64,000 bases of DNA, taken from positions 62,001-126,000 of the forward strand of contig CP120455.1 in assembly GCA_034226945.1 (NCBI GenBank), read 5' to 3'. How positions within the stretch are numbered: position 1 is the first letter of the stretch; each line of letters opens with the position of its first letter. Below the pieces are notes generated by a model. That model was given only the letters and a program-made list of their open reading frames with translations. It did no database searches and was not told where the DNA came from. Position numbers and translations under genes: made by a program. This stretch comes from Picochlorum sp. SENEW3 (lineage: Eukaryota). This document shows, piece after piece, positions 25,024 through 40,012 of this stretch.

Positions 25024-26514
25024 CTATTTGACGTTATACTGTGTATCATACTGACCCATTTCTTCATCAGTCAGCAATGCAGAATCAAGCTGTCTGCAAA
25101 TTGCTTCCTCATCCATGCCAGCTCCGATGAAGACAATCTCCTGTCGTCTGTCCCCATATACTCCATCAAAGTCAGCCAGGATGCTCTGTTTCGGAGCCTC
25201 ATCCTCTGGCCACTCGTTCTCTGGAATAGCTGCCCACCATTCTCCTTCATCTCGAATTTCAAAGTGCTGTCCAGCATGGCTCCAGTAAAACGCTGTCGAG
25301 TGAGAATTTGATATCCACATAAATCCTTTTGATCTCAACACTGTCTTGATCGGACTCTCCGACAGATCATCAGGCATGTCATGCTTCTCCACCTCTTTGT
25401 TATGTGTGACTGGCATCCAACGAAGCACCAAATCCTTCAAACGCTGCGGATGGAATGGCTTGCGCCTCTCATAGACAAAGCTCACAATTCCAAATCTGGA
25501 CTCCGCAGTCGTCTTTTGTCGCTTTGATGCACACTCGGAGCAATCATCATCATGATGATGCTCGTGATCATGATGATGGTGACCATGATGATGCTCGTGA
25601 CCATGCTCATGATGATGCTTGTGATCGTGATGATGACCGTGATGCTCATGATGATGATGATGATCATGGTGTTCATCTTTCTTTTCATCGTGAGCAGCTT
25701 TAACCGCTGCAACAGAACCTCGGTGGTGCGCTTCAGTATTCAACGCCGACACCAAGGCAGCTGCCTCCCGCCCAAACATTTCATCAATCTCAACATTACC
25801 ATGCTCACACGGAATCACTCTGGCAAGCGGATTCAAAGACGTCATAATAGCCTCCAGACTATCCACAGTCTTCTCATCCAGCAAATCACACTTGTTCAAC
25901 AGAATGAAATCAGCACATTCAATCTGCTCCACCAACAAGTCTACCACTGGTCTCATACCACCACCCTCCCCAAGCTCTGGTCGAGCCGCCACGGGCGCCT
26001 TTGAAGAATAATCCTTGATAAACGTCGCAGAATCCACCACAGTCACCAACGTATCCAGGTGCACCTTCTCCACCAGTGGATGCCCCACAGCCCTGGCATC
26101 ATTAAACTGGTCCCTGATATTCTGTGGTTCAGCCACACCACTATTCTCAAGCACAATCCGATCATACACAATCCCACGCTTCTTCGCAATATTCAAAAGA
26201 TTCTCGAAAGAATCGAAAAGCTCATCCGCAATGCTGCAGCAAGCGCACCCATTCGCCAACTCTATCGTGTCTGTCAAATCTGCTGTCGAGTTCTTCTTCT
26301 TCTTCCCACTCTCATCCCCTCCACCTGAGGACTTGTCCGTCCCACGAATCAGCTTCGCATCGATATTAACACTTGCCACATCATTTACAATACACCCAAT
26401 CTTCAAATCAGACTGTTGAAGCAAGTGACGAAGCAACGTCGTCTTGCCTGCTCCAAGAAACCCACTCAACATGGACACCGGCACTGAACGTGCCTCAACA
26501 CCATCCCCAGACAT
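25024..26514 (-). CDS. COG0523/CobW-family metal-chaperone GTPase with His-rich insert
   Basis: LSGFLGAGKTT, ELANGCACC (CxCC), ENSG, LNKCD, long poly-His segment, CobW_C (LRSKGFMW...GDRRQEIVFIG). Confidence 0.95.
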   Translation of the reverse strand: MSGDGVEARSVPVSMLSGFLGAGKTTLLRHLLQQSDLKIGCIVNDVASVNIDAKLIRGTDKSSGGGDESGKKKKNSTADLTDTIELANGCACCSIADELFDSFENLLNIAKKRGIVYDRIVLENSGVAEPQNIRDQFNDARAVGHPLVEKVHLDTLVTVVDSATFIKDYSSKAPVAARPELGEGGGMRPVVDLLVEQIECADFILLNKCDLLDEKTVDSLEAIMTSLNPLARVIPCEHGNVEIDEMFGREAAALVSALNTEAHHRGSVAAVKAAHDEKKDEHHDHHHHHEHHGHHHDHKHHHEHGHEHHHGHHHHDHEHHHDDDCSECASKRQKTTAESRFGIVSFVYERRKPFHPQRLKDLVLRWMPVTHNKEVEKHDMPDDLSESPIKTVLRSKGFMWISNSHSTAFYWSHAGQHFEIRDEGEWWAAIPENEWPEDEAPKQSILADFDGVYGDRRQEIVFIGAGMDEEAICRQLDSALLTDEEMGQYDTQYNVK

Positions 26515-26788
26515 TGGCAATAGTATCAGTAATTCCTGAAAAAGAAATATAATCGATCAGAAAACTTCTTCGCGGTCGTGTATGAGAATTGTGATTCAAA
26601 CGGTTGAAAACTCGCAATCCACAGAATCTCGAATTCCTTGTTCTTCCACTCAATACACAAAATATGTATATATATATATATATCACTATGCATAAAAAAT
26701 TAATGTGTGGCTGGTGGAATCAATTCCCACATGTCCATTCAAATCCGCAGAGAGAATCTGTCTCTCTCTCTCTCTCCGGATCCACGAT

Positions 26789-28604: not shown

Positions 28605-31586
28605 ATGGATACTACCTCCACTCCTGTTGATGCTGCTGCTGCTGCTCCGGTGGCTCGTCGTCTTCCTTTGACATTGCTCAGTGGGTTCTTGGGTTCAGGC
28701 AAGACGACGTTGTTGAAGCATATTCTGAAGAATACTGAGAATCTCAGAGTTTGTGTGATTGTGAATGATATGGCTGCGTTGAATATTGACGCTGCTCTGA
28801 TTAAAAATACAAAGCTGATTCAGACGGCAGAAAGGATGATTGAGCTTCAGAATGGTTGTATTTGTTGTACTTTGAGGGAGGATTTGTTGCATGAAGTGGG
28901 CGAGTTGGCACGGTCTGGCAAGTTTGATTATCTGGTGATTGAGAGTACTGGAATTAGTGAGCCTATGCAAGTAGCAGAGACGTTTACAATGGATATTGAT
29001 GATGAACATGGGGCTGTGCAGCCTTTGCATGAGCTTGCAACGCTTGATACGTGTGTTACGGTGGTGGATGCTGCGAATATGCTGATGAATGCGTACGTCA
29101 TTGATTTTGTTGTTTGTTGGTGTATGTGTATATAATATTCATGCATATATATTATCATGTGCAGGGAGAGTGTGCAATCTTTAAGGGATCGTGGAGATGC
29201 AGCACATGACGAGGATGATAGAAATGTGTCAGACTTATTGTTGGATCAGATTGAATTTGCTAATGTCATTTTACTCAATAAGATTGATTTGGTGACTCAA
29301 GATGAGGCCAAGAGACTTTGTGCATTGCTGAGGGCTTTGAATCCGACAGCCAAGGTGATACAAACAATAAATTCAGAAGTTGAATTGAAAGAGATTATTT
29401 CCACTGGATTATTTAGCTTTGAAGAAGCATCTCAGAGTGCTGGATGGCTTAAATCAATGCAAGAAGAAACACCACATACTCCTGAGACTGAAGAATATGG
29501 TATTTCTTCTTTTGTATTCAAAGCTCGGCGACCATTTCATCCAATCAAGATTCATAGATTTATGACAGAGCATTTTGCATTGCAAGAACCTGACTGGAGT
29601 GATGCGATAGCTGATACAAAAATGGACAAGATTGTCAAAGAGGCACAGGATTCTTTGAAACAGGCATTGGATCATCTAGAGGAATCAAAGCAGGCGATTG
29701 AGGGTTTGAAATCCCTGAAAGTGGCTTCATCTTCTGTCGATTCGCTTTTACAATCTCTAAAAGAATCCATGGAATCTGTTTCAAGTACATCAAATGCTTT
29801 GGTCGAGCTGCAAAATATTTCTGCTGAAGAGACGGTTGGAGGCCATGGTGCCTCAAGCTCTGGGACATCAGAGGCATCGAAAGCTTTCGAATCTTTGAAG
29901 AAAAAATATGGTAATGTTTTGAGATCAAAAGGATTTATATGGTTGGCATCAAGGCCGGATTTATGCGGTGAGTGGTCTCAAGCTGGTGCTGTGCTGCGAT
30001 TTACGGTTGGAGGGCCATGGTATGCATCTCTTCCTGATGAAGCATGGCCAGAAGATGAGCAAGATAGGCTTGCTATTTTGAATGATTTTGTCGAACCACA
30101 TGGCGATCGTCGACAGGAACTTGTCTTCATTGGCATTGATATGGATAAGGATGCACTTCATAAAGCGTTGGAAGACTGTTTGTTGGAAGACCACGAAATG
30201 GGACATGAGTTGCATGATGATCCTTTCGGTGAATGGCCAGCACTGGAGGATATTCTTGATGGTGGTGATGAGGATGATCATGATCATGAGCATTGTACAG
30301 ATCATAATCACAATCACATTACGCAGGATATAGAAGGAGATGCCATCACAATACAGTTGGGGACCGTTGTGAAAATAACAGATGGGGCTTCTGAGGCACA
30401 GCAAATTCTGGATTCATTACAACCAGATACGACCGTGATTATCTACTGGCATGCAGAATGGCATGCTGAAGGCTCTGAAATATCAAGAGACATCGAATCT
30501 CATGTCACAAATCTGAATACTTTGGTGTTGCATGTTGATATAGGAAATCATCCACCAAATTGGTCCTTTGCCATGGAAAAAGTGATGACAAAACCTGAAG
30601 CAAGGCGTGCTGGCGCAAAACCGGTTTTGAAAAATGGACTCAAGTGGCCATGCTTTACTGTTCACAATGCACCAGACCTCCAACCTATTGACACCATTGC
30701 AGGTGCCCATGCTGTGAATTCAGTCAAGAAGATTATATCATCATTGCCAGAGGCCCCTGCTGGTGCTTCAAGTATATCTATTTCCCAGATGAAAAGTCCA
30801 ACAGAAGGAATAGCATCCGATGAGGGAAATGCACCAATATCAATATCCTCTATTCCATCACCAGCCATGGGTGCAACCCCAGAAGCAGTGCTATCATTTT
30901 TCCCCCGCTTGGAAAATGGGGCAGTTGAACTACGAGAGCACTTGAAATCCTTCACACAGCAGGATAAAAGTTTATGCATAGTATGGGAAGAGAATGGACT
31001 GCCTCTCAAAGTTCTCAAAGGCTTGCAGTCGATAGTCTCCATTCGCCCTGAGACCAACAATATATTCATAGCAGATGTCGGAGCATCTCCAGGCAATAAA
31101 GCTCTCGCAAAAGCACTAGGAGTAAAAGGTTCTCCTTCTATGTTGATTTTCAGGAACATGAAACTTGATAAGAAGTTTGATGGGCCTGACAAGGTAGTGG
31201 ATGCACTCGCTCAGGAGTATAGAACACTGCCTGCTGAAGTTTTGAGCGTCCCAGGAAAGCCTCTTTCAAAATCCCAGCCAAACACAACCAGTGAACCGTC
31301 TCTGTATGACCCACCTAAAGGGAAACAGAACAGATCTGGCAGTACAAAACTGACACCAGATGGAAAACTTGTCCATTATTTCCCCAATATGCCATGTTTA
31401 CGATGTGGGAACCCTTGGTGGACTTCAGATGATTGGGATGCCCTGTGTGTCCGTTGCAAATGGAACTGCCTCACAGGAGGATATGATGACAACTCAAAGC
31501 CACTTCCCCAGCACAAAGCAGTATGGCAAAAGTACGTGGATTCCATCAAATCAGGAATCACACCCGCCTGGAAGGGAAGCAAGTAA
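28605..31586 (+). CDS. COG0523/CobW-family GTPase fused to thioredoxin-like segments and a C-terminal Cys4 motif; exons 28605-29092 and 29165-31586
   Basis: [60 protein letters not shown]; extension with YWHAEW and [24 protein letters not shown]...CVRCKW. Intron 29093-29164 keeps the frame. Confidence 0.92.
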
Positions 31587-33571: not shown

Positions 33572-33999
33572 TCCTTGATGAAGACCTCAACGTGTGGGAG
33601 GAATATCTCACTGAATAGCGTTACATCCCTGAACAACAATCCCATCATGGACAGGACAGAGTCTGCTCCATCACCGGAGAGTATGGATACAAAAGTGCAC
33701 CAGGCGACTGACGATGATATTTAATACCCAAGTGATCTGAACCTCTTCTCCTGCACCACCACCTCCGTCGCGATCTGACGAGAGAGACGGGGCAAGCAAC
33801 CAAAATTGAATATCCTCGGGGGGGGGGGCATGAGGGAGCAGGTCAGCATGGCAACCCACCATGAGCTCAAACAAAAAAGATCAACAACAAGACAGATTCC
33901 GTAATTGAATATAGTTTAAGATGGCTCGCGATGGGGTGGCGACGGGCTATGGCGGGCAGAAAATTCGGAAAAGGGTCCTTGAAACCACCTGTCGTGGTG

Positions 34000-34071
34000 T
34001 CCGATGTGGTCCAGTGGTATGGATATCTGGCTTTCACCCAGAAGACCTGGGTTCAATTCCCAGCATTGGAG
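34000..34071 (+). tRNA. tRNA-Glu (anticodon TTC)
   Basis: Cloverleaf TCCGATG...CATTGGA; anticodon loop CTTTCAC; T-arm CTGGG-TTCAATT-CCCAG; followed by a T8 Pol III terminator. Confidence 0.95.
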
Positions 34072-34420
34072 GTTTTTTTTAAGGAACTTTCCCGCCACAT
34101 GAGTACACTCAACTCTCGAGCGTTTTGACTTACGAATGACAAACAATTTGCGACTCGAGTCGCGACACCAAGGATATATATATATATATCTTTATCTTCT
34201 GACACGGAGTTCCTTAATTTTGCACCTAGAAGGCGTTTGGCATAGAGTCAAACACAACTGACGAGTCAAACTCGTCCGAAATTCTTGTACGTGTTGTTGT
34301 ATCTCATGTCCTAAAGGTTGAATGATGTTCTCAAAGCGCCTTGTATGAGACAGTGAACATGAAAGGCACGTTCGGACTGCGTATGGTAATTCTGTGGTAT
34401 CCCGTTTGCAGGTCTTCCCA

Positions 34421-37400
34421 ATGGATCGGAGAGAAGAGACCTCAAAGAACACGAGACGAGGCATGTTCGGTTATCCACCAATGGCAACTCGACACCCTCA
34501 GCCTACATATTCGGATGAGGCGGATGGTGACCAGGATACTGGTGCAACAGCAGCAGAGGTGGTGGGTCTTACGAGGAAGCGGTCGAGGTCTAGCATGCTG
34601 AGAGGCAGTGTATTAACAGACCTTGACATATTTCTTTCGGAAGGAGAATGTCATATTGTTATTCCAGATTCTCAACCGACAGATCCGGATGAGGATAGTC
34701 ATGATGAGAACACTGGTGCAGCAGCACTGGAGGAAGAAGAGGCTGTTGTTTCACCTCCTGCAGTCCATAACGATCAAGGTGTGAATGTCGTTCTAACACC
34801 TGCGTAATTGATACCATTATCCAACCACGTCTCGCCTGATTTCGTGCAGATTTGGCGACTGGTGGACGTACAGACAAACGAAGTGGAGTCAAAAGGAGCA
34901 GGTGTGTGTGTGTTCATCTCTGTTCCAGGCTCTGGCCGAGATAGTGCCTGACCGTTCGTATTGTATTAACGCAGAAATTCTTCTTCTCGTTCGTTTCCAT
35001 GGTCTGATATGAGCCTCAACGAGAGAATGAGCAGGTGCAGGGAGGTCGCTGGGAAAGTAGAGACCCTCGTTGGACAGCCATTGCCAGATACTCTGGCATG
35101 TATTCGTGGCTGCATTGCTGACGTGTCAATCACATCGAGAGCGGCAATCTATAGTTTATTTGAAGAGGATGCTTTGTTGGAAGTTCCAGCAGAGTTGAGG
35201 AACGTGTCGTGGCAAGATGATGCAGAGTTTGTGGCGGGGTCAACTCGAAGAGCAGCGGAGAACTTGCCTGACGCAGGCATCCATGCCATTCCAACCCTGT
35301 TGGCAGTGCTATTTCACTACGACTTTCATCAAACGTGGAACAAAGGTGAATTCGAGAGGGCTGTGGCATCCGGCCGTCGGGCATTGTATGGGTACATCCA
35401 ACAGCTCATCAGGAGCCATGGCATGGCTGGCGCAGGCTCGCGCAATTGGTCTCTGGCCATCCGAGAAGACTGTAAACCACTGGCCCCTCATCTCAGAGCC
35501 ATCTTCCAGAGTAAAGAGGCTGCTGTCCTGGTATACTCGAACGATGATGAAAGGATCGACTTGCGATTTGGACTGGAAGACGTGCTGGCGACGTACCTCA
35601 CGAAGCGCAAACTGATTTGGTCTGTGGATCACAGGTACAACGCCTTTTGGTGCAGTCACGTCGTGGCGTGGGTGCGAGAATCTTTTTCGATCATAGAAGA
35701 CTTTTGCGCGGGAGTGTCGCGGGATGACATTGTCTATGCTGGCGAGGGAATTTTGAGTACCAATCGACTGATTGTCTGGGCCTCTGGACGAATGTGTACC
35801 ACGGCAAGATGCGCCGGATTGTTGACAAAAGTGAGCGAAAGCGGTATGATTTGCCCATGTGTAATGGATGTCGACACGAAAGAGCCCTGCAAGGTGCGCA
35901 TTCACCAGGCAGTGGGCATGATCAAATATGGTGTGAACAGGAAGACATTGGGGAGCGAATGGTACGAACGAGAGGGCATCACGTTGGATCATATGGCAAG
36001 GGACACTGCATATTTTGGCATCTTTCAATTGATGGCAGCAACATGGGAAGAGCAGTGCCTCAATAAGACCTGTCTGCAGGACATTGCCCCTGAGAAATTC
36101 CAGCCACTTGAGGCGCTGCAGCACGACGCAGATACCAAAGCTGCCATCCTGGAGAATGGCGAAAAGGGGTGGAAACAATGCAGAGTACGGGTGGATTCGT
36201 ATGCAAGTGCAGATCTTGCCGAATGCCGCAGAAACAAAGAGACGGTGGTGACAGGCTTGTGTGAGTGCCACGAGCCACTGATGTACCATCCGACCTTTCA
36301 TTGTCTCAGACTAGAGGTGAGGGAGTCGAGTTACATATATTTGAACGTCAGGAATCTGTCAAGACTGTGCTTTCCGGAAAGATCGTCGTATTTTGTACGA
36401 ACCCCATCAGTGTTTGGATATCCCATTCATCACCTCGTGCACGACACCATGTGTGACGATGATTCAGTAACCTTGGTCGGTCAGGGAACTGATGGAAAAT
36501 ATCACATATATGTAGTTGATCACGTGCAGAATGATCCGACAGATGCGAGCCTCGTGCAAATGCTGACAATGTCTGAGAACACAGCCAAAGATGTTGGCCT
36601 GCCAGTGAAAGCTCGTCTTCTGCTGCCAGGCTGTGATGATGGCGGCCTTTCCGAAAACCGAAGATACATCGACGTTTCTGAAGGAGATAAAACATCGATG
36701 GCATTAAAGATTCAAGAGCACTTCAAATCGCCAGGCTTTGAGGGGGATGTGATTGCAGAAAGGATTTGCAGCCTGAGTGTTAAAACAATAGTCTGCTGCT
36801 GGTTTGGAAACAGACGAGGAGTCCATAGGGATTACAACAAACATGTTATTGTCGACGAAGCAGAAAGTCTTGAATCGTACACAAAATGTCGGGAATGTAT
36901 TTACAAGATCTGGCACACTGCAGTAGAATCCAATAATGCCACCGAATATATCACGAGCCAGGCACAGATGAAGGCACGCATACTGCATATTACAGGCGCC
37001 CCAGGCATACCAGATCATTTTTTCGAGAGTGCGTGGATCTTCAATGCACATCCCAAGTATAGGCGTGAGGTTTTCAAAACTTTGGGGAATGGGGCTGTGG
37101 TTGATGTGACACTCATCTTTGATGCCTCCCCAGACCGAGCATTCACCGAGTATACCATCAAGGATCTGATAGACAATGAGTCAGGCACAGTCTCTGGATA
37201 TATTGGGGTGGTAAACTTTGTCTTGTCTCGACCAACACCCATGGAAGGCACCTGGATGAAGAACAAACATGCATGGTATTTGGAAATCCACAAAGCACTC
37301 GATGTCAAAGGAGACGAGAATACAAAAAAGAAGTACTTGTTCAACAGGTTTGAAATCACCAACAAGGCCGTAGACATTGCTCGCCTGCGAACCAGAAAGA

Positions 37401-38491
37401 CGTACACTGTCCAGTTCCCAGAAAAGCCACATCTCAACAGTGGTACATGTGACAGAAAGGAAATGGAAGAGGTCCTTCGAAAGACTGTTCACAATGAGAT
37501 CACGTACGACATGATTGTCAGTCTTGTGAATCAAGGTAGCGAGGCAAAAGTGAGAGAGGACATTCGCAAGGCATTCACTCAGTCAAGAGTGACTATTGGG
37601 GGGTTTCAAAGAAAAAAGGCGTCAAACAATACGACAAAGGAATGGAGATATCCTTCATATTTCGTCATGTCGAAACAATGGTGTGAGGAACATCAGTCTA
37701 GCTTTGAGATAATGCAGCAAGATGTAGCGATAGAGAAGGCGAACAGCTCCGCATTAGCTGTCGATAGCGTCAAAGAGGGACTTCGATCTGGTGACTTCAA
37801 AATGCTCCATTTTCGTAGCGGCAAAGAGCGAAACAAATTTTTGGATGACTACTTCCCAGATCTCACTCGTTGGTTCTCCACGTCTGCTAGGCTTGTGAGG
37901 GAAACAACCAACTCATATCTTCTCAGTGATGATATGAAAGACTGTCCTGTCAAATGCTTCATCTCTGGGCACGACAAACCAGAAAGGCCTGACGTGATCA
38001 TCAAATCGCGTGCATTTGTCGTCAAGTATCAAGCAAATAGTCAGGAGGTTTTCAAGGAGGCCATAAAGATTTTCTTGAAGGAAAAAGTCTCCGAGGAGGA
38101 GAGCCTGGTGTCATCATCACCATCACCAGTGTTGGAGGTTTTGCGTGACAGCAGGTGGGTAACACGCATATATTCTAAAAATAAGAACAACAACAATAAA
38201 TCAAACGACCCACGAAATCTAAACTGTAAGGCCATGATGAAGTCTCTCTCTCTCGTGCCGGTGGACAGGATAACGTCAAAAACTTTTCATATCAGTGGAA
38301 AGCCATGGTACGACCCATCCCATGAGAATGAGGAGGGTGTACCATTTGTGTTTAGACGTGTTGAGGGCCCTGAGGAAGCATGCAATGATCCTAATGCGAA
38401 GAAGAGTTATAATCTCCAAAACAAGAATCTCAGCAAGGGCGAAGAAGAAGAATTCGAGTGTTATTTTGTTCTGGTGGCACAAAAGATTTGA
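34421..38491 (+). CDS. Large orphan protein (~1,300 aa) with two HNH-endonuclease-like motifs; predicted exons 34421-34778, 34850-34901, 34975-38491
   Basis: The 1160-aa ORF joins the upstream acidic ORF in frame through GT..AG introns 34779-34849 and 34902-34974. RIHQAVG...TLDHMARD...LMAATWEEQCLNK and IHHLVH...VVDHVQNDPTD...LTMSENTAK resemble the HNH_3 pattern VHRLVA..VDH.N....N...L...T..EN. Confidence 0.6.
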
Positions 38492-39128
38492 TATCATTAC
38501 ACGTACATATAGGGCCGTACATATAGTGCATCCTAGTAGCTCCTGCTAAACATTTCAACGTGCGTAACAAATATTCTCATCAAATAATCGAAAATATTCC
38601 TATCCAGTCACCACGTTTAAAAGAGTAAGTTTGTAAAGTTTCAAAGTTTGGCCGACCACGATGCATCGTGACCGAATTTGAGCCTGAAACTCAACCAATC
38701 ATCTCATTTAAACGAGATCCTTTACACGTATCACCCGTTTTTTGGTCTAATTCTGTGTGGATGATGGTGCAACGACCACACATCATACGTGTAACCTCGA
38801 CCCTATGTCCTCCCACAGATGGTAGGCGGATGAAGTATGAAGCAGCATTTAATATCTGTATTGAATAGAGAAAGTTGCCGTAGTGACCAAAAAACATACG
38901 AGTCGGTTTTGAAGTGTCTTGCATTCCGCAGACGTACTCGGTGCTCAGACTGCTCGATAGGGCATCACGTCTGCGTAACCTTTTGGGAACAGTATAGACG
39001 AGACGGATCCGGAATAATAAACCTCCGGAGGTATCTCCGTTAATGTAAAGTATTTACAAAATGTCAATCCCTGTGGTTTCTTAAAAAAGAAGAAATAGAA
39101 AAGTTCCTTAAAAATTCCTTAAAAAAAT

Positions 39129-39200
39129 TTCCATTGCGGGGAATTGAACCCCGGTCTCCTGGGTGAGAGCCAGGTATCCATACCACTGGACCACAACGGA
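39129..39200 (-). tRNA. tRNA-Glu (anticodon CTC)
   Basis: Reverse complement TCCGTTG...CAATGGA; anticodon loop CTCTCAC; T-arm CGGGG-TTCAATT-CCCCG; T7 terminator downstream. Confidence 0.95.
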
Positions 39201-39466
39201 CACCACGACATCTTACCTATGGCCGTGGTCATCATTCCGATGTAGTTCCTCGAATTTCTTCGAGCCAGGTAAGGTCAAGAATGATTTTGCAAGTTCTAAT
39301 TAAGGAACTTTTTTTCTTTCCGAGCCGTGTTTTCTGCACGCCAAGGCTCTGGACAGCGGATCCGACCGCCCCTTGGTGTGCTGAAGAAGCAAGAGAGTGA
39401 GAAAATCTGGGCCGACACAAAGTTGCCCTAATTACAAATCAATCCCTAGCTTCTGGAGACCTCACC

Positions 39467-40012
39467 TCACCGTCTCCTCCGCCCCCCAAACTCCAGCGCC
39501 ACGCCGCCAAAATGCCCTCTCCGGTCACCATAGGTCTGCTCGAAAAACGCGTCGAGTGCCTCTTGCACCTCGTCCACCAATTCGACGTCCAGCGCGTCGT
39601 CCCGGGCAACGCGCAGCAGCAACCCCTTGAGGTTGTCGTGCTCCGTGCACCCCGCCGCATCCACGAGCAGCTTTCTATGGTGGGCCACCGTGTCTGTCGG
39701 CCTCCTCCGCACCAGTTGCAACTTTTCCATCGCCATCCCCGCCAGTTTCACCGGGTCTGAACCCGGTGCCTGCTGCCCCAGCAGCCGTTCCACCGTCTTC
39801 TCCAGGACAGCCCTGGAGGTTGATGCAGTATCATCATCATCATTACTATGTACCAATAAAACCCTGTTCAACCGACCCCGAATATCACGTTCTTGGTCGG
39901 CACCGACTGCAATGCCATGCTTTCTCTGAAAGCCAACCTTTGCGATATCCGTTTTCAGCAGCAGGCACAATTCTTCTTCTTCTTCTTCTTCTTCTTCTTC
40001 TTCTTTATTCAT
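39467..40012 (-). CDS. Hypothetical protein with N-terminal poly-Glu
   Basis: 181-aa ORF with coding-like composition, divergent from TBCC; no family recognised. Confidence 0.45.
   Translation of the reverse strand: MNKEEEEEEEEEEELCLLLKTDIAKVGFQRKHGIAVGADQERDIRGRLNRVLLVHSNDDDDTASTSRAVLEKTVERLLGQQAPGSDPVKLAGMAMEKLQLVRRRPTDTVAHHRKLLVDAAGCTEHDNLKGLLLRVARDDALDVELVDEVQEALDAFFEQTYGDRRGHFGGVALEFGGRRRR

Follow-up and report, generated by a model that had tools for sequence, protein, structure and literature searches.

A spliced nuclear gene with candidate I-HmuI-like modules between two inward-facing tRNA-Glu genes of Picochlorum sp. SENEW3

The DNA analysed here (hereafter the window) is a 64-kb stretch of nuclear DNA from Picochlorum sp. 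SENEW3. Its subject is a block at 33990-39210 in which one large spliced gene, encoding a protein with two candidate homing endonuclease modules, is bounded by two tRNA genes. ARAGORN identifies exactly two tRNA genes in the window. Both are tRNA-Glu genes and they point inward: tRNA-Glu(ttc) lies at 34000-34071 on the plus strand and tRNA-Glu(ctc) at 39129-39200 on the minus strand. The Rfam tRNA model scores them at 65 and 63.2 bits, respectively, with a gathering score of 29. ARAGORN, Rfam and the presence of one long open frame thus agree with an earlier note on this DNA, which had described two inward-facing tRNA-Glu genes around a single large gene. What the present analysis adds is that the tRNA genes are part of a longer inverted repeat, and that the whole block seems to be inverted in one BPE23 assembly and in one contig of a relative.

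The two tRNA-Glu genes have their leader and trailer in common, and as a result a 101-nt inverted repeat is formed. Its left arm occupies 33990-34090 and its right arm 39110-39210, and the arms are 86% complementary; their outer ends, 33990 and 39210, are the limits originally given for the block. Each arm contains the common 10-nt leader, the tRNA (tRNA-Glu(ttc) in the left arm), a T-run and a trailer with the motif AAGGAACTTT. The inner borders of the block are perfect 15-nt inverted copies of each other. Eight of the 72 tRNA positions differ between the two genes, namely the anticodon base, the last base and three compensatory stem pairs. Since the stem differences are fully compensatory and not a single pair is broken, both appear to be functional isoacceptor genes with an old divergence between them, rather than a fresh duplicate and a decaying copy.

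The trailers carry a 12-mer, TTAAGGAACTTT, that occurs four times in the 64 kb where 0.27 occurrences are expected; none of 100 shuffled sequences reaches four. All four copies adjoin the two tRNA-Glu genes. One follows tRNA-Glu(ttc) at the inner edge of the left arm (34079-34090, plus strand), two stand in tandem after tRNA-Glu(ctc) at the inner edge of the right arm (39100-39122, minus strand), and the fourth (39300-39311, plus strand) lies about 100 nt beyond tRNA-Glu(ctc). The fourth copy belongs to a 25-nt segment outside the block (39287-39311, plus strand) that is an 80% identical direct repeat of the tRNA-Glu(ttc) 3' end and trailer (34066-34090), and the 12-mer within it is non-random. 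The segment may be what remains of a third tRNA copy or of an insertion that took place long ago. A third tRNA gene beyond tRNA-Glu(ctc) was considered and rejected, as the tRNA model gives no match there at E <= 10, the alignment is poor and ARAGORN predicts none. A 28-nt inverted repeat (39099-39126 and 39285-39312) also brackets tRNA-Glu(ctc). In a contig from a relative (run X5), 10 nt are missing at 39111, so that one of the tandem trailer copies is gone, and there are small indels at 39033 and 39046.

The long frame of the gene, 34970-38491 (1173 codons), is 100% identical to the hypothetical protein PSENEW3_00000035, which is annotated with 1335 amino acids. Residue numbers below refer to this frame unless stated otherwise. 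Contigs of four public runs were placed on 33900-39300. Three of the runs, X4, X7 and X8, come from three different studies and were labelled as RNA by guess; spliced joints are present in them. The X4 contigs span 34141-38967 and cover neither tRNA. Three introns were found, all with GT..AG borders. Intron 1 (34287-34411, 125 nt; joint 34286>34412 in X4) lies in the 5' untranslated region (UTR) and is additional to the two introns already proposed. Intron 2 (34779-34849, 71 nt) is seen in X4 and X7 as the joint 34776>34848, which corresponds to 34778/34850 when the cut is moved by 2 nt, and intron 3 (34902-34974, 73 nt) is seen in X4, X7 and X8 as the joint 34897>34971, which corresponds to 34901/34975 when the cut is moved by 4 nt. 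The RNA contigs therefore place introns 2 and 3 at exactly the predicted junctions, 34778/34850 and 34901/34975. The earlier note had also called them in-frame. This holds in the sense that the frames of the exons join, although the intron lengths of 71 and 73 nt are not multiples of three.

When the three junctions are applied to the window, the coding sequence comprises 1308 codons starting from the ATG at 34421, which equals residues 28-1335 of the annotated protein. The 5' UTR exon covers 34141-34286, its first RNA-covered base being a lower bound for the transcript start. The first coding exon (34421-34778) opens with the likely start codon (MDRREE...), is acidic and has an internal 63-nt repeat; the protein P0016 begins at the same place. 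The repeat is direct (34497-34559 and 34671-34733, 71% identity) and gives two acidic QPT..DE..D..TGA units near the N-terminus. A small basic exon with the sequence KRSGVKRS (34850-34901) is followed by the main coding exon with the stop codon (34975-38491) and by a 3' UTR that extends as far as the RNA contigs, from 38492 to 38967. All of these features are on the plus strand.

No ATG is present upstream of 34421 in the RNA-supported spliced 5' UTR. Residues 1-27 of PSENEW3_00000035 are doubtful because they require a mini-exon upstream of the tRNA. The public models for this gene in SENEW3, P. renovo and both BPE23 assemblies have the first exons MARDG..., MGWRR..., MACDG... and MEKLQ..., which read through or around a tRNA gene. 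Since RNA coverage begins only at 34141 and no usable ATG precedes the one at 34421, the N-termini that the public models place at 33921-34016 and 39650-39730 are probably annotation artefacts. The practical point is that the gene models of three assemblies here open with what are probably spurious exons running through or around a tRNA gene.

A second transcript was noticed at the 3' end of the gene. An X7 contig contains the joint 38855>38938 with CT..AC borders, which corresponds to an 82-nt GT..AG intron on the minus strand (38856-38937) that overlaps the 3' UTR of the large gene; the depth of X4 is higher across 38384-38967. A coding role for this minus-strand spliced transcript was considered and dropped, as neither its spliced nor its unspliced frames offer a convincing open reading frame. 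It may be an antisense or non-coding transcript.

The first exons of the public models, whether or not they are translated, reveal which flank the 5' end of the gene faces in each assembly. The models of Picochlorum sp. BPE23 in the M9435 locus-tag series (residues 1-32, 90.6% identical) and of P. renovo begin in 33921-34016, run from the upstream flank into tRNA-Glu(ttc) and continue into the gene. They are collinear with the window, and the link to the tRNA is therefore conserved. The BPE23 model in the M9434 series (P0012) is arranged differently: 27 of its 27 N-terminal residues are the minus-strand translation of 39730-39650, a flank marker beyond tRNA-Glu(ctc), after which the model enters the gene on the plus strand. 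With its first exon taken from the far flank and the gene on the plus strand, the block must be inverted there. Independently of these models, position 39109 is linked to 34079, with a change of strand, in a DNA contig of depth 5.7 from run X5. The 3' end of the gene thereby comes to lie beside tRNA-Glu(ttc) and the flank upstream of this tRNA, both reverse-complemented, as in the second junction of the inverted form; another X5 contig is collinear with the window. Both junction types of the flipped form are thus observed, that between the right flank and the 5' end of the gene in the M9434 model and that between the left flank and its 3' end in X5. The BPE23 assembly is a fully phased diploid from 18-kb HiFi reads (PMC9615354), and M9434 and M9435 are, for this reason, most plausibly its two haplotypes. 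Recombination between the 101-nt arms would be the simplest cause of the inversion, and we infer that it is passive.

The protein has few relatives. A search of 1.84 billion representative proteins returned five matches at E <= 0.001, namely relatives with 77%, 42%, 32% and 27% identity and a 71-residue fragment, and the description of the gene as an orphan consequently holds only loosely. The 90% cluster of the SENEW3 protein also includes the two BPE23 proteins of the M9434 and M9435 series and metagenome fragments, and the ortholog model of P. renovo is 92% identical. Within the genus, SENEW3 is closely related to BPE23 (PMC12458973). The 27% relative (P0007, KAI8104330.1) is from BPE23 M9434 too, so that at least two old paralogs exist in one genome. 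P0007 ends in five Pfam HA (helicase-associated) domains at residues ~1017-1388 (E 1.5e-34), which replace the C-terminal half of the family and suggest a nucleic-acid-binding role for the family core. HA repeats in the other members were looked for and rejected: the HA profile stays below 1% probability in 18 of 18 windows. In the literature, no paper on the family was found, and the words "HNH" and "endonuclease" are absent from the text of the SENEW3 assembly paper; a search for inverted tRNA genes and inversion likewise yielded nothing specific.

Two segments of the protein, 35897-36067 (residues 310-366) and 36422-36588 (residues 485-539), had been proposed to resemble HNH_3-type motifs. 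They are among the best-conserved blocks of the family, and we compared the profile of the family with a reference made from every Pfam HNH_3 match in SPO1 I-HmuI and five other phage records, which gave 28 distinct segments combining NUMOD4 (PF07463) with HNH_3 (PF13392). In the three references that were checked with Pfam, NUMOD4, HNH_3 and the I-HmuI NUMOD-like domain are all present. I-HmuI residues were counted along the SPO1 frame, which we take to match the published numbering.

Module 1 (35756-36082, plus strand; residues 263-371) aligns with the phage reference over 87-91 columns in register, which include most of NUMOD4 and all of HNH_3, at E values of 2e-7 to 6.5e-5. With hhalign the probability is 87% (E 4.1e-6, 87 columns); it is 78.2% with a second tool and 93.6% against full-length references. 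When the profile of the whole 1173-residue family is used as the query, the single best match falls on residues 266-367, at 64.1%. The score of module 1 is 36.05, compared to 10.0 +/- 1.8 for column-shuffled profiles (maximum 14.9; z = 14.5; 0 of 110 shuffles) and 10.8 for the reversed profile. In the controls, four of four other regions of the protein remain below 1%, as does the unrelated HA profile in all the windows mentioned above, and 13 of 20 sliding windows give 0.42% or less, with the peaks on the two modules. In an unfiltered hmmsearch, the best stretch of each of the five members also falls on the modules. Judged from these comparisons, module 1 clearly appears to descend from a homing endonuclease of the I-HmuI type with NUMOD4 and HNH_3.

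For module 2 (core 36377-36622, plus strand; residues 470-551, with an HxLV helix and VVDH...N) the match is restricted to a VVDH...N core of 27-28 columns, with a probability of 5-9% and E values of 0.004-0.007 (28 columns: E 0.0036, 9%). Its score exceeds the shuffles in two comparisons, 20.03 against a maximum of 18.3 (0 of 110) and 24.64 against a maximum of 20.6 (0 of 80). The same descent is suggestive for module 2. The two-segment proposal has thus fared unevenly: it is borne out for module 1 by profile-profile comparison with controls, it is suggestive for the core of module 2, and neither segment passes library thresholds. Following module 2, residues 588-640 (36731-36889, plus strand) are the best place in the protein for the C-terminal NUMOD-like DNA-binding domain of I-HmuI (reference = PF22083). 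The match is weak and can be taken as a hint only (score 21.93, 0 of 100 shuffles; probability 1.6%, E 0.031). Two sliding windows at residues ~111-220 of P0001 (window ~35300-35630) give faint HNH_3 matches with probabilities of 3.7% and 5.3% and scores of 18-19, near the top of the shuffle null; these matches may be noise or may reflect a third module that has decayed further than the other two. Internal duplication was rejected as the origin of the two modules, which match each other with a probability of 0.4%.

In His-Me finger nucleases the general base is an invariant His in the first strand, in most cases with D, E or H directly before it, and the metal is bound by an Asn or His where the helix begins, often aided by a polar residue at +4 or +8 (PMC5714182). 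Eight residues are invariant in five of five family members, down to 24% identity: H312, D340, H341 and N365 in module 1 and H487, D517, H518 and N537 in module 2. The Asp-His of both modules (D340-H341 and D517-H518) aligns to the Asp-His of the references, in which the corresponding His is found in 28 of 29 sequences and the metal-binding Asn also in 28 of 29. Module 2 has N537 in five of five members, with D, D, E, E and G at +4. In module 1 the metal column reads Q, Q, Q, E and Q, and the invariant N365 is three residues further on. Module 1 accordingly looks degenerate, as had been suspected of the first HNH motif, because the metal-binding Asn is absent at the aligned column.

A number of observations weigh against deriving the protein from a nuclease of this type, or against other parts of the interpretation given below. 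The structural Asn of the H-N-H motif, which is present in 29 of 29 references, is absent from both modules (module 1 has Q, Q, H, S and S), and the two modules show no mutual similarity. None of the five members reaches the Pfam HNH_3 gathering score of 24.8 bits. The best near-match in Pfam is HNH_3 on residues 505-529 of P0007, which correspond to motif 1 (12.3 bits, E = 0.14), and P0001 and P0002 have no HNH_3 match at E <= 10. NCBIfam and PHROGs give nothing HNH, PDB sequences searched with the profiles A1 and A3 give no match, and the two-module profile (A3) finds nothing at E <= 10 among 5.8 billion proteins of 155-506 aa. A single I-HmuI sequence matches A3 with a probability of 0.13%, and residues 280-560 and 560-1173 have no match in the ESM Atlas. 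The homology of the modules was obtained with one method, hhalign, with a reference set of our own making and a thin query profile (Neff about 2.2). An AlphaFold2 model of residues 263-551, made from the five-sequence alignment, has a mean pLDDT of 49.9, with values below 50 over both motifs, and shows helices, not a beta hairpin, over the Asp-His of module 1. With this low-confidence model, Foldseek finds no PDB match at E <= 0.001 and VIA-align none at Z >= 5 among 48,161 chains; I-HmuI (1u3e) ranks 17th in VIA-align (Z 2.6, rmsd 3.5, 65 residues aligned). The fold searches are uninformative because the model is poor. The check for an HNH fold that had been called for is therefore positive for module 1 in the custom profile-profile test, negative for library profiles and without a clear match in structure comparison. 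As to the other parts, the inversion is read from predicted BPE23 gene models and one contig of low depth (5.7), not from BPE23 DNA, and purifying selection is weak. In a partial list of 27 differences that separate the window from a close relative's RNA contigs, synonymous changes number 12 and nonsynonymous ones 15; 7.6 +/- 2.2 synonymous changes are expected at random (P = 0.047), and the mild constraint seen here also counts towards a resident gene.

The surroundings of the block are those of an ordinary nuclear locus. The neighbouring genes encode two CobW GTPases, a GT10 fucosyltransferase, a TBCC-like protein, a pseudouridine-5'-phosphate glycosidase, a PCO/ADO protein, a dynamin, a mitochondrial carrier and UTP20. 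None of these neighbours is a gene for a transposase, an integrase or a reverse transcriptase, and by Pfam the single gene of the block has no such domain; the absence of these enzymes had already been noticed, and the neighbours prove to be housekeeping genes. The two CobW/CobW_C GTPase genes are divergently placed (25027-26556, minus strand; 29136-31583, plus strand), and the G+C content of the stretch is 0.42-0.45 at 26-34 kb compared to 0.57-0.60 at 16-24 kb, where UTP20 is found. Across the large gene the G+C content is 0.465-0.495, the same as the genome average of 46.3% (PMC11092101).

Two origins had been offered for the gene, that it was derived from a virus and that it forms a new mobile unit linked to tRNA genes, and neither is supported by the searches. 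For a viral relative, IMG/VR contigs gave 173 pattern matches of which none was confirmed, and a tblastn search of the two-module region against phage genomes gave a best match of only E = 9; the G+C content equals the genome average. JGI metagenome contigs gave 323 pattern matches, again with none confirmed, and an exact 20-mer from 39063-39082 was not found in them. As for mobility, no contig in the four runs joins the two tRNAs without the gene or crosses the block on one strand. The 64-kb window holds no second copy of the gene. No presence/absence polymorphism was seen among SENEW3, the two BPE23 assemblies and P. renovo, all of which have the gene. The proposed association with tRNA genes, on the other hand, stands, since tRNA-Glu adjoins the orthologs in P. 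renovo and BPE23 too. Of the two outcomes that had been considered for the gene, a domesticated nuclease or DNA-binding protein is favoured over a new mobile unit linked to tRNA genes.

Taken together, we lean towards the interpretation that the clade of SENEW3, BPE23 and P. renovo has inherited this nuclear gene vertically, as a resident of the genome. Its product, whose most conserved part would descend from a free-standing homing endonuclease of the I-HmuI type, would bind or nick DNA, and the gene would sit in a passively invertible cassette bounded by tRNA genes. Nuclease activity, DNA binding and nuclear location of the ~1308-aa protein are predictions from its sequence. Module 1, with the NUMOD4 strands and an HNH_3 finger that keeps Asp-His and has Gln or Glu at the position of the metal-binding Asn, would most likely be a pseudo-nuclease that recognizes DNA. 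Module 2, in which Asp-His is joined by an Asn that opens the helix and by an acidic +4 residue, would be the likelier active site and may cut a single strand of DNA in the manner of I-HmuI; behind it there may be a weakly matching helix-turn-helix of the NUMOD type. The acidic N-terminus, the basic clusters and the C-terminal half of 530 residues are at present assigned to no fold. The protein as a whole would bind or nick specific DNA sequences in the nucleus, and it would be either domesticated or a resident of long standing. Homologous recombination between the repeat arms would flip the 5-kb block, hence both orientations among relatives, and the gene would be expressed in either orientation because its promoter would be inside the block.

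The most direct alternative is that the gene is an active selfish element, a free-standing homing endonuclease that cuts gene-less alleles at or beside tRNA-Glu and spreads together with the flanking tRNA genes. Its homing endonuclease ancestry, the complete catalytic set of module 2 and the conserved link to tRNA-Glu would all suit such an element, as would the 25-nt direct copy of the tRNA 3' end and trailer beyond the block, and phages provide a precedent in SegB of T4, which lies in a tRNA cluster (PMC2330249). An active element is nevertheless hard to reconcile with a gene that occurs in every close relative seen, with no empty site in four runs and no second copy in the window. Three spliceosomal introns, a host-like G+C content and some 1000 residues beyond the nuclease core also weigh against it, old paralogs at 27-42% identity suggest long residence, and we consider this alternative unlikely. 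If the H...DH...N blocks were instead chance resemblances in a lineage-specific protein of some other fold, it would be easy to understand why curated profile libraries and searches of PDB sequences are blank, why the structure model does not show the expected fold and why the modules are dissimilar to each other. Chance does not readily explain some 90 columns of module 1 in register at z = 14.5, unmatched by any of 110 shuffles and found again when another reference alignment and another tool were used, nor that the best unfiltered hmmsearch stretches of five of five members fall on the modules and that the sole near-match in Pfam is to HNH_3 in the same place. We accordingly find a protein unrelated to nucleases improbable.

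Two further proposals give the nuclease a part in the rearrangement itself. The cassette could flip itself, the nuclease cutting TTAAGGAACTTT at the inner edges of the arms and repair of the break inverting or copying the block. The fourfold occurrence of the motif in 64 kb beside these tRNAs only, the perfect 15-nt inverted copies at the inner borders, a joint in the inverted contig that lies in the trailer and not in the tRNA body, and the presence of both orientations within one diploid strain are all in keeping with such a cassette. A 101-nt inverted repeat, however, suffices for passive recombination, and where the joint is placed is decided by the aligner and by a single contig. Moreover, we know of no HNH enzyme that acts as an invertase, and we judge self-flipping to be highly unlikely. 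A broader version of the idea would make the locus a eukaryotic nuclear counterpart of the phage arrangement of a nuclease within a tRNA cluster. Here the tandem HNH protein would recognize TTAAGGAACTTT, at the inner borders of its own block and in a relic copy outside, would nick or cut at these places and would drive inversion, gene conversion or copying together with tRNA-Glu, and the essential isoacceptor genes would serve as a safe harbour that cannot be deleted. We regard this as quite a long shot.

The preferred reading, of a resident gene derived from a homing endonuclease, is of interest for several reasons. If it is true, a large, spliced and expressed nuclear family built on two modules would be a clear case of the capture of a homing endonuclease into a eukaryotic host gene, and the same route has been proposed for the AP2 and Smad MH1 DNA-binding domains. 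The block bounded by tRNA genes, found, as it seems, in both orientations within a phased diploid strain, offers a natural system in which passive and nuclease-aided flipping can be compared. Picochlorum strains are transformable production algae, and the function of the gene can therefore be tested by knockout.

Segments that are bounded by repeats and exist in both orientations are well known from the flip-flop of the plastid inverted repeat and from the yeast 2-micron plasmid. The Picochlorum block differs from these in that its 101-nt repeats consist of nuclear tRNA-Glu genes and flanking DNA, and in that no recombinase gene is present. The hosts of Chlorella viruses belong to the same algal class as Picochlorum. 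The HNH_3 endonucleases of these viruses (group 33, PMC5714182 Table 1) are alike in being of the HNH_3 type; no sequence relation was seen in the scan of IMG/VR, in which the chlorovirus proteins themselves were not compared. The homing endonucleases of phage tRNA clusters, such as SegB of T4 (PMC2330249) and the F-Tfl enzymes of T5 named in PMC5714182 Table 1, resemble the Picochlorum locus in setting, the SegB gene lying directly between tRNA genes. SegB, however, is the product of a small phage gene, has been shown to cleave DNA and to be preferentially inherited, and belongs to the GIY-YIG rather than the HNH class, whereas the Picochlorum gene is large, nuclear and interrupted by introns, and its product is a predicted nuclease. 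Smad MH1 shows that a His-Me finger can lose its catalytic role and persist as a DNA-binding domain of a eukaryotic nuclear protein (PMC5714182), as we propose for module 1; it lacks the catalytic His, which is kept in both Picochlorum modules, and has no sequence relation to them.

The closest known system is I-HmuI of phage SPO1 (PDB 1u3e) and group 2 of HNH_3. The likeness extends over the ~90 columns of NUMOD4 and HNH_3 in module 1, the vHxLV helix and the Asp-His of both modules and the metal-binding Asn of module 2, and a weak NUMOD-like stretch comes after module 2 in the same domain order. I-HmuI is an intron-encoded phage protein of 174-177 aa, while the Picochlorum protein of ~1308 aa is the product of a spliced nuclear gene and has two tandem modules alongside about 1000 other residues; it also lacks the structural Asn of the group and remains below the Pfam HNH_3 threshold. 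Enzymes of the I-HmuI type are overwhelmingly viral and bacterial, and in the 2017 census the HNH_3 group has 28 eukaryotic members compared to about 4100 others, 795 of them viral and 3288 bacterial (PMC5714182 Table 1).

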